Under the pieces are notes generated by a model, which made no database searches, was not told the DNA's origin, and saw only the letters and a program-made list of their open reading frames with translations. A stretch of 64,000 bases of DNA from a virus (Duplodnaviria > Heunggongvirae > Uroviricota > Caudoviricetes), in the IMG/VR virus record IMGVR_UViG_2648501839_000008. One strand, given 5' to 3'. A program made the position numbers and the translations under genes. Shown here one piece after another: positions 16,239 to 17,942 of the stretch. The stretch's first letter is position 1, and every line of letters begins with the position of its first letter.

Positions 16239-17942
16239 TTAATTATTAAGCAATCTGCTCACACGTAGTTTGTTAAGACTTGATCTAGAGGCCAGTTTCG
16301 TTAATGCACCTATTGCTTTATTCGTGATTTTTTGCTGTTCTTCTGTTAGTTCTTGCATACTTTTGAATCTGAGCAACCCCTTTCTCACTAAATCCAAAGC
16401 ATCCTGATTGCGGGATAGTATCCACTTTAAATAATCATCTTCAGAGAAACTGTTAAGATATGCTATGTCACTATGATTAAATTTGCCTTCAATTATTTTG
16501 TATAAAACATTCTCTAAATTAGTCTCTTCAGGCTTCTTATCCATCAATTTTTTTTGAATTAGCAGACCTAACTTTTCGTTACCAAATATCTCTACATACA
16601 AATTCCGAAAAGCAGTATAAGCATCATCTTGGCTAACAAAGGCATCTGCATATGCCTCTATATAACTATCACAATCAATCTCCAATCTATTTAAGATATC
16701 AATCAAGCCTATGAAGTGAGCAACAGGTATGTGTGAAAGATTGTCGTTAATTACACATTTTATCTTAGAAATAAACTCAGATTCATTGTCCTTGAATGAG
16801 TCACTAAAAATATCCCAAACATTGTTAACATCACATAAAGCCTTGTGTTCTTTATATTGTTTATTTTTTTCTTCTATTATACCTCGAATATTGCTTTCAG
16901 TAGAAAGATAACCATTCTTGAGATAAAAATCTATGTCATCATCGAAAGCAATTTCCGCTCGTTCATAAATAACATCAAGACTATTAATAAATGAATATAC
17001 AGAATCATCCTTTTTATCATCTAACATGTAATCAAATACATGTATGTTTTTAATTGATTCTTTAAACAAGGCATAATCAACACCTGGAACACCAGAATAG
17101 TAAACCACTGAAAACAGAACCAATCTATTGATAAAACTTTCTCTAACCTTATCCTCTGCCAAGCTTAGCTCATTCCTAAGATTAACCAGAGATGTTTTTA
17201 TTTTATTTAATATACGGATATTTTTAATGCCTAAGTCATTTGCTAAGACTTTTAACAAAAGAAAATCAGAATCAGTTTCATAAAAAACTTTACGTAAGTT
17301 CTTCTCAGGCGTAGGATCGTATTTTATTTCGACATCAATTACTTTTTCTCTGTACTCTAAAAACTGTTTTTTTGCAGTTTCATCATGTAAATTATCTTCA
17401 TTTAAAATTAGAACAACTTTGCAACCTTTTCTTCTTGCTAATTCATCAATTACCCCCATAATTTCTTTAACTTCTAGCGAATTACCTTTTCTTTCAACAT
17501 CATCAATACAAACCAAATAATTATTAACAAATTTATACTCAAGAGATGACAGCAGGTTATCTGTTTTGAACCCAAAAAAATCGTTCTTTCCGAAATGTAT
17601 TAAAAATTTTGACAAGGAGTTGTATTTCAACCATCCCCAAAACCCATTTCTATAACGAATCATAGTTCGATCCGTTTCAGATAAAATTAGTTCTTTATAT
17701 TTCTTTTCATTAATTGGTGTGGCACAATGATAAAGAGCTTTTTTAATATCACCAATAGAGTTAACCCCAAACAAAGAAACATACGAATATGCATTAAAAT
17801 CTAATCCTTCAGAATGCTTAGTATAAAAACTATTCCAATAATGAGTTTTACCAACGCCCCAATCTCCTTTTATGACGGCAACCCGATGATCTGAAACTAG
17901 AAAATTTTTTAGAAATGATTCTATCGATTCCATTAGTATCAA
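16239..17942 (-). CDS. KAP-family-like P-loop NTPase, AT-rich gene
   Basis: N-terminal GDWGVGKTH (GxWGxGKT KAP-type Walker A); Walker B-like VCIDDVER; 567 aa; lower GC than flanks. Confidence 0.55.
   Translation of the reverse strand: MILMESIESFLKNFLVSDHRVAVIKGDWGVGKTHYWNSFYTKHSEGLDFNAYSYVSLFGVNSIGDIKKALYHCATPINEKKYKELILSETDRTMIRYRNGFWGWLKYNSLSKFLIHFGKNDFFGFKTDNLLSSLEYKFVNNYLVCIDDVERKGNSLEVKEIMGVIDELARRKGCKVVLILNEDNLHDETAKKQFLEYREKVIDVEIKYDPTPEKNLRKVFYETDSDFLLLKVLANDLGIKNIRILNKIKTSLVNLRNELSLAEDKVRESFINRLVLFSVVYYSGVPGVDYALFKESIKNIHVFDYMLDDKKDDSVYSFINSLDVIYERAEIAFDDDIDFYLKNGYLSTESNIRGIIEEKNKQYKEHKALCDVNNVWDIFSDSFKDNESEFISKIKCVINDNLSHIPVAHFIGLIDILNRLEIDCDSYIEAYADAFVSQDDAYTAFRNLYVEIFGNEKLGLLIQKKLMDKKPEETNLENVLYKIIEGKFNHSDIAYLNSFSEDDYLKWILSRNQDALDLVRKGLLRFKSMQELTEEQQKITNKAIGALTKLASRSSLNKLRVSRLLNN

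Follow-up and report, generated by a model that had tools for sequence, protein, structure and literature searches.

A soluble KAP-family NTPase gene as one allele of a variable cassette slot in an SSU5-like phage-plasmid

We analysed a 64,000-nucleotide stretch of viral DNA (IMG/VR record IMGVR_UViG_2648501839_000008, Caudoviricetes; hereafter the window), which is an SSU5-like phage-plasmid of Escherichia, and within it one AT-rich gene on the minus strand that encodes a KAP-family P-loop NTPase of 564 amino acids (aa). An earlier note on this DNA had described the gene as an acquired single-gene insertion and had raised an immunity role. Our analyses indicate that the gene sits in a defence hotspot of the phage-plasmid, with the parA/parB-like operon on one side and the replication genes on the other, and that an allele of a replaceable cassette slot is a more fitting description of it than a simple insertion. 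We consider it moderately probable that the product, a soluble stand-alone KAP NTPase, would shield the lysogen, and so also the phage-plasmid, from superinfecting phages or from rival mobile elements. This reading is strengthened because PD-T4-3 and PD-T7-5, both validated systems, and PDC-S31, a candidate, are found in the slots of sibling phage-plasmids.

A variable cassette slot between the partition and replication modules

The slot borders come from an alignment of the window region with its counterparts in Cyrano, PhiR41_1 and SSU5. Backbone homology spans a palindrome downstream of the gene, ends at about position 16231 and restarts exactly at the stop of a parB-like open reading frame (ORF) at 17985, and the slot interior (1.75 kb in the window) is unrelated among all four aligned elements. 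The features of the region are listed below.

15316-16065, minus strand: 249-aa ORF, backbone; heads the DnaB-like helicase/primase module, downstream of the slot
16172-16230, minus strand: nested backbone palindrome of 59 nucleotides (nt), conserved; downstream slot border
16231-17984, no strand assigned: variable cargo slot, from the palindrome to the parB-like stop; content unrelated among sibling phage-plasmids
16239-17933, minus strand: coding sequence of the KAP-family P-loop NTPase, 564 aa; stop codon at 16239-16241
17955-17983, minus strand: hairpin with a perfect 12-bp stem (TATATTGGGCGT/ACGCCCAATATA), between the parB-like stop and the KAP start
17985-19012, minus strand: partition module, backbone, with ParA (18344-19012) and a 119-aa parB-like ORF (17985-18344); upstream slot border

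The placement of the gene between the replication and partition modules, as first described, was correct: the primase, the DnaB-like helicase and the 249-aa ORF lie on one side, and the parB-like ORF and ParA on the other. The record closest to the window is CP054387.1 ('Escherichia phage CMS-2020a', 97.8%), and Cyrano, PhiR41_1, SSU5 and Klebsiella phage-plasmids are more remote relatives. A match to the par/rep backbone that surrounds the gene is present in 737 PLSDB plasmids, mostly of about 110 kb and non-mobilizable. The gene occupies the slot in 23 of these, 19 of them at 98-99% identity and 4 with an allele that is 76% identical at the aa level, and it is carried by one of 11 related phage records. 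Other siblings have unrelated genes at the same position:

PhiR41_1 (L002) and pRHBSTW-00905_2 (L009): 255-aa protein matching PD-T4-3 (E ~1e-23), GIY-YIG
NZ_CP083502.1 (L017): PD-T7-5 (E 1.4e-139) together with DUF2971
Cyrano (L001) and SSU5 (L003): DUF2971, which is PADLOC PDC-S31
L015, L016, L008 and L018: a 352-aa gene of unknown function, and two-gene cassettes of unknown function (136+246, 140+250 and 136+214 aa)

What characterizes a defence hotspot of a mobile element is therefore present here, namely conserved flanks around mutually exclusive, unrelated cassettes with validated systems among them. The P2/P4 prophage and satellite hotspots (Rousset et al. 2022, PMC9122126) share the conserved flanks around mutually exclusive cassettes, many of them anti-phage; the present slot differs in belonging to an SSU5-like phage-plasmid and in its location between par and rep modules. 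A 2025 survey (10.1101/2025.09.12.675607) reported DefenseFinder hits to PD-T4-3 and PD-T7-5 in SSU5-type phage-plasmids of E. coli and Shigella and described neither a hotspot nor the KAP gene. In the literature that we searched, we found no account of a par-rep hotspot in SSU5-like phage-plasmids, nor of a cross-genus allele series.

The composition of the gene sets it apart from its surroundings. Its G+C content (GC) is 0.307 compared with 0.459 for the remainder of the window, and it is the GC minimum among all 1.7-kb windows (mean 0.456, standard deviation 0.037), at about 4 standard deviations. GC at third codon positions (GC3) is 0.248, against 0.445 to 0.568 in five neighbouring genes. 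The contrast between an AT-rich gene and balanced flanks was thus borne out by both the windowed GC and the GC3 comparison. Normal composition combined with universal conservation in related phages, which the earlier note had named as grounds against acquired cargo, is not what we found, and the comparison of related genomes that it had proposed shows a gene that is far from universal at this position. Occupancy and composition support the description as cargo; the part of the description that did not stand is the simple insertion.

Homologues of the protein are found in the same slot of SSU5-like phage-plasmids of Klebsiella (P0043, 40% identical) and Salmonella (P0033, 44%). In both, the order is parB-like ORF, hairpin, KAP gene, palindrome and a 241-aa ORF, and the backbone proteins around the KAP homologues are 82-94% identical to those of the window. 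The KAP genes of all three genera have GC of 0.30-0.31 and GC3 of 0.25-0.30. Since identity is low for the KAP proteins and high for the backbone, the family has either been captured repeatedly into this slot from an AT-rich pool or been retained in it with a divergence much faster than that of the backbone. Because divergent family members fill the Klebsiella and Salmonella slots, cassette exchange or allelic replacement describes the locus better than a one-off insertion. Using tblastn, full-length family members were located on 116 plasmids, of which 75 are from Klebsiella and 21 from Escherichia. The intact 564-aa ORF is present on approximately 1,000 contigs, and a variant of the protein differing by 2 aa, named from Shigella sonnei, is on 928 contigs.

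Two E. coli alleles also revealed a mosaic gene. Comparing the window allele with the 76% allele (NZ_CP031136.1) gave a ratio of nonsynonymous to synonymous substitution rates (dN/dS) of 0.225, and the KAP gene is under purifying selection. Identity is 90% in the NTPase half, with a synonymous divergence (dS) of 0.35, and 66% in the C-terminal half (dS 0.81). Along the gene, nucleotide identity is 98% near the 5' end and declines to 70-73% at the 3' end, and the slot flanks are 95-100% identical between the carriers of the two alleles. The comparison of these two alleles suggests that intragenic recombination swaps the C-terminal region, as might be expected of a specificity domain.

Outside this slot the homologues are solitary and were found inside the type IV secretion system (T4SS) operon of an integrative and conjugative element (ICE), beside an IS66 element and in a gap between housekeeping genes. 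The first is a single 36%-identical gene in the chromosome of Salmonella enterica subsp. salamae (L010, 9001-10779), between a DtrJ-like and a RAQPRD-family gene of the ICE operon, which suggests that the family rides conjugative elements too. The Oleispira homologue adjoins IS66, and the one in Pragia lies between ychF and gsp.

The palindrome at the downstream border starts 8 nt beyond the KAP stop codon and is conserved in SSU5, Cyrano and PhiR41_1, and also in the Klebsiella and Salmonella relatives. Since homology runs through it in relatives without the gene, it is part of the backbone and not of the cargo. The earlier note had placed a nested palindrome directly 3' of the gene; it is there, at a length of 59 nt, and its association with the cargo has to be given up. 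Conservation in gene-less relatives, SSU5 included, likewise led us to reject it as a part of the insertion, an attachment site or a transposon end, and no flanking direct repeats were found around the slot. The RNA of the minus strand folds at -25.7 kcal/mol (z -6.3) compared with -19.2 for the plus strand, and a short T-run follows on the coding strand. Judged by these properties, the palindrome looks like a terminator-like element that would close a par-cargo transcription unit. A second copy at about 49786-49843 is, like the first, located between minus-strand genes, and its minus-strand RNA (-34.1 kcal/mol) again folds better than the plus strand.

The Escherichia, Klebsiella and Salmonella versions of the locus each have a GC-rich hairpin within the 42- to 51-nt gap between the parB-like stop and the KAP start (the two counterparts of the window hairpin are at ~5962-5985 in L004 and ~5960-5982 in L006). 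The sequence of the hairpin differs each time, and we conclude from this that it travels with the cargo. One possibility is that it acts as an attenuator or terminator of read-through from parAB. A promoter scan was uninformative, with 9 sites compared with 10.2 expected from shuffled controls. The gene is probably expressed at a low level by read-through from parAB across the hairpin.

The KAP protein and its predicted fold

The ORF called mechanically runs from 16239 to 17942 on the minus strand and would encode 567 aa from a TTG at 17942, the length given by the earlier note. That ORF is intact on the minus strand, but the length needs correction. The TTG is probably not the start used; the likely start codon is the ATG at 17933, which has AAGGA 9 nt upstream and gives 564 aa. 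Near-identical database proteins are 564 aa long in every case, and the window protein is identical to cluster P0001.

Pfam PF07693 (KAP_NTPase) matched aa 15-257 with 24.9 bits against a gathering cutoff of 20, over profile positions 12-278 of 293, and the same profile is precomputed for nearly all of the 120 homologues listed. Motif invariance was judged on 36 homologues with identities of 27-77%. The parts of the protein and their positions in the window are as follows.

16242-17162, minus strand: C-terminal all-alpha, solenoid-like domain, aa 258-564; family-specific and the fastest-diverging part
17163-17891, minus strand: NTPase domain with helical lid, aa 15-257; AAA+/ORC-Cdc6/STAND-like fold
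17205-17236, minus strand: protospacer, with a 32/32 match to a chromosomal type I-E spacer of E. coli; ATG at the position of the protospacer-adjacent motif, coding strand
17343-17354, minus strand: YREK motif, aa 194-197, invariant; downstream of a LIFNE sensor-1-like strand
17490-17516, minus strand: Walker B LVCIDDVER, aa 140-148; C142, D144, D145, E147 and R148 invariant
17844-17867, minus strand: Walker A GDWGVGKT, aa 23-30; G23, W25, G26, G28, K29 and T30 invariant

The earlier assignment to the KAP-like NTPases had been made from the GDWGVGKT sequence, which is indeed present at residues 23-30, and it holds: the Pfam profile scores above its cutoff, so that the lack of profile support named as a ground for abandoning the assignment does not apply, and both Walker motifs are present. 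They follow the KAP patterns, GxWGxGKT/S for Walker A (the PifA counterpart is GAWGSGKT) and hhhhDDx(D/E)R for Walker B. Further invariant residues are N238, R240, K244, G341, W504 and R557, and N178 is nearly so. A soluble insert of low confidence (aa 92-126) separates the two Walker motifs. An extended alpha-helical region C-terminal to the NTPase, a further property of KAP proteins, is also present. The protein matches phrog_4740, a family of unknown function, over its full length (E 1e-165).

Many KAP members, although not all, have transmembrane helices in or near the NTPase domain. In the window protein no transmembrane segment was found, with a maximum KD19 hydropathy of 1.35 and no 19-residue window above 1.6. 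Since PifA is also without such helices, they are not required for KAP membership. We rejected a Tmn/YobI-family transmembrane NTPase on this ground and because no PADLOC tmn match was obtained at E values up to 1.

Structure comparison of the NTPase core gave Cdc6/ORC initiators as the best matches, and TnsC was also among them. A model of the C-terminal domain alone (predicted local distance difference test score 86) matched only HEAT/ARM/TPR-like solenoids, at Z of 7 or less. Pfam searches with 21 C-terminal domains returned only scattered, single-member chance matches, and a PDB sequence-profile search with the family alignment gave no match at E values up to 1. An exhaustive phmmer search of 1.84 billion representatives with the C-terminal domain found it almost only at the same position in proteins of 530-600 aa. 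We therefore rejected the idea of a shuffled module, the domain being nearly confined to one architecture of 530-600 aa.

The gene is also matched by a CRISPR (clustered regularly interspaced short palindromic repeats) spacer. Among 5,426 complete E. coli genomes, five have an annotated chromosomal CRISPR array that includes a perfect 33-nt match to 17205-17237 (L013, 1501-1533). In one of these, NZ_CP024263.1 (O169:H41), the 32-nt spacer is second from the AT-rich leader end of a type I-E array flanked by ygcE and queE; none of the remaining spacers of that array matches the window. The protospacer encodes aa 233-243 and covers the invariant residues N238, R240 and K244.

Known systems, predicted function and alternatives

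KAP-NTPase single-gene defence candidates related to PDC-S49 are already known, and the window protein is an uncharacterised addition to them. Of the PADLOC systems, PDC-S49 matches best (E 2.8e-22, aa 6-226, profile positions 8-214 of 624); it is itself a candidate made up of one gene of about 620 aa. The Klebsiella homologue P0043 aligns with it further, over profile positions 6-479 of 629 (E 1.8e-16). From these alignments PDC-S49 appears to be a related sister group, and it is not clear that the two form one family.

PifA of the F plasmid (reference NC_002483.1) is a KAP protein without transmembrane helices that acts against T7 (PMC13001434). The two proteins have in common that they are plasmid-borne, stand-alone KAP NTPases with a long helical C-terminal region and no transmembrane helices, and that their genes adjoin a replication/partition region. 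PifA differs in its length of 741 aa, in its PF07693 score (148 bits compared with 24.9) and in the dedicated repressor PifC encoded upstream; no pifC-like gene adjoins the window gene. Orthology was rejected, since the BLASTP alignment (E 0.08) is limited to 17 residues around Walker A.

EF_KAP and three metagenomic proteins that combine a KAP domain with an uncharacterised region are anti-phage, Walker-B-dependent and non-abortive (PMC12632615). Like the window protein, these are single polypeptides in which the KAP NTPase is followed by about 300 aa that are uncharacterised and mostly helical. EF_KAP differs in its two N-terminal transmembrane helices and its Firmicutes origin. No sequence relationship outside the KAP domain was shown, and the C-terminal domain of the window protein is specific to its own family; matches to Enterococcus in tblastn are only 25% identical and cover aa 8-260. 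QatA, a KAP protein that binds DNA and forms heptamers or octamers (PMC13279940), acts together with QatB, QatC and QatD, whereas the window gene and its homologues stand alone. We rejected QatABCD and QatA orthology because the neighbouring genes are ParA, the parB-like ORF and replication genes and because PADLOC gave no QatA match.

The STAND/Avs-type NTPases share the logic of an NTPase switch followed by an alpha-repeat sensor, and the fold is similar to those of NLRs, Apaf-1, Avs4/5 and RdrA. They differ in their Walker B/KAP motifs, and the window protein has neither an N-terminal nor a C-terminal effector domain. Membership in this group was rejected as well: nSTAND3 reaches 16.3 bits, below its cutoff of 27.2, and an effector fold is missing.

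The role of the protein is most likely that of a stand-alone NTP-switch immune sensor, for which the following sequence of events is conceivable. The variable C-terminal solenoid would recognise an invader protein or nucleoprotein. Recognition would then flip the NTPase switch and lead to oligomerisation, Walker-dependent NTP hydrolysis or both, after which the assembled NTPase might itself block the infection by binding or remodelling the invader complex or its DNA. We favour direct capture or remodelling as the blocking step because no effector fold is present.

Several observations weigh against an immunity function. The PF07693 score is barely over the cutoff, as for a marginal, divergent member of the family, and NCBIfam has no model for the window protein. 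The protein shows none of the folds of a nuclease, TIR, SIR2, protease or pore, and with no effector domain to be recognised any step of killing or blocking is purely conjectural. The window protein aligns with PDC-S49 over its N-terminal ~220 aa only, and a literature search returned nothing on PDC-S49, which is a computational candidate only; nor did we find a published test of the window protein's family as anti-phage. Several of the alternative slot cassettes are without known function, and the argument from location is suggestive only. Finally, ORC/Cdc6 and TnsC are AAA+ proteins of DNA transactions, and together with the par-rep position this makes a replicon-related role conceivable.

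A competition between elements is one alternative, and we think it unlikely. In this case the protein would exclude rival plasmids, phage-plasmids and conjugative elements, and not lytic phages. The position of the gene between the par and rep modules and the homologue inside an ICE conjugation operon are in keeping with such a factor, as are the ORC/Cdc6/TnsC-like AAA+ core, DNA binding by the KAP protein QatA and the E. coli CRISPR spacer, which shows that hosts treat the element as foreign. However, the validated cassettes PD-T4-3 and PD-T7-5 that alternate with the gene were discovered as anti-phage systems, and every characterised KAP example acts on phages.

It is improbable that the protein is instead an accessory of the replicon, a DNA-binding AAA+ aid to replication initiation, partition or copy-number control. 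Such a role would suit a gene on the same strand as parA and the parB-like ORF, directly downstream of them with the hairpin alone in between, and a product whose best structural matches are the initiators Cdc6/ORC. Against it, siblings with par/rep flanks that are 95-100% identical carry unrelated slot genes (among them a GIY-YIG nuclease-like PD-T4-3, PD-T7-5 and DUF2971), lone homologues reside in chromosomes and an ICE, and the extreme AT-richness indicates a foreign origin.

A passenger without current function, AT-rich and perhaps H-NS-silenced, that hitch-hikes in a recombination-prone slot would account for a GC of 30.7%, typical of xenogeneic DNA, and for the lack of a strong promoter above shuffled controls, but is very unlikely given the dN/dS of 0.225, the catalytic motifs invariant in 36 homologues, the ORF intact at 564 aa on ~1,000 contigs and a family that has been kept or regained in this slot across three genera.

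Returning to the immunity reading, we offer a more specific combined account as a tentative and rather doubtful proposal. The family-specific solenoid of a KAP NTPase lacking transmembrane helices would make the protein both sensor and effector, which would use NTP to capture or remodel a protein-DNA complex of the invader and would need no enzymatic killing domain. It would do so from a previously undescribed SSU5-like par-rep hotspot, whose alleles, the C-terminal halves above all, would be exchanged across Escherichia, Shigella, Klebsiella and Salmonella, including the highly prevalent phage-plasmids of S. sonnei that have no DefenseFinder system.

SSU5-like phage-plasmids are common in clinical Enterobacteriaceae, and the dominant SSU5 clade of S. 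sonnei was found to be without a recognised defence system (10.1101/2025.09.12.675607). If the KAP protein is an immunity gene product, part of this gap would be filled, and phage therapy and phage typing of such strains could be affected. The par-rep slot is a practical bait for new defence genes, with at least four cassettes of unknown function, and the allele series, with its conserved NTPase and swapped C-terminal halves, provides ready material on how specificity is determined in KAP NTPases.

Other regions of note in the window

Three further regions of the window were noted. In the interval from ParA to the lysis genes (19189-20309), two ORFs (250 and 127 aa) form what is by appearance a second variable region. 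They are 73-76% identical in the Klebsiella relative and 33% in the Salmonella relative, with backbone neighbours on both sides at 82-95%, and PADLOC gave no match for either ORF. At this position Cyrano has a toxin-antitoxin pair, the toxin being an acetyltransferase of the KacT type.

A stretch at about 4500-6000 ranks second-lowest in GC within the window (0.35) and includes a 420-aa ORF (5120-6382, plus strand) on the strand opposite to its neighbours. This ORF, for which PADLOC returned no match, may be another cargo gene. A 345-aa ORF (11639-12676, plus strand, GC ~0.40) likewise lies on the strand opposite to the replication genes. By eye it has a signal-peptide-like N-terminus and repeated Sel1/TPR-like motifs, and its sole PADLOC match, to PtuA (E 8e-4), is weak and probably spurious.

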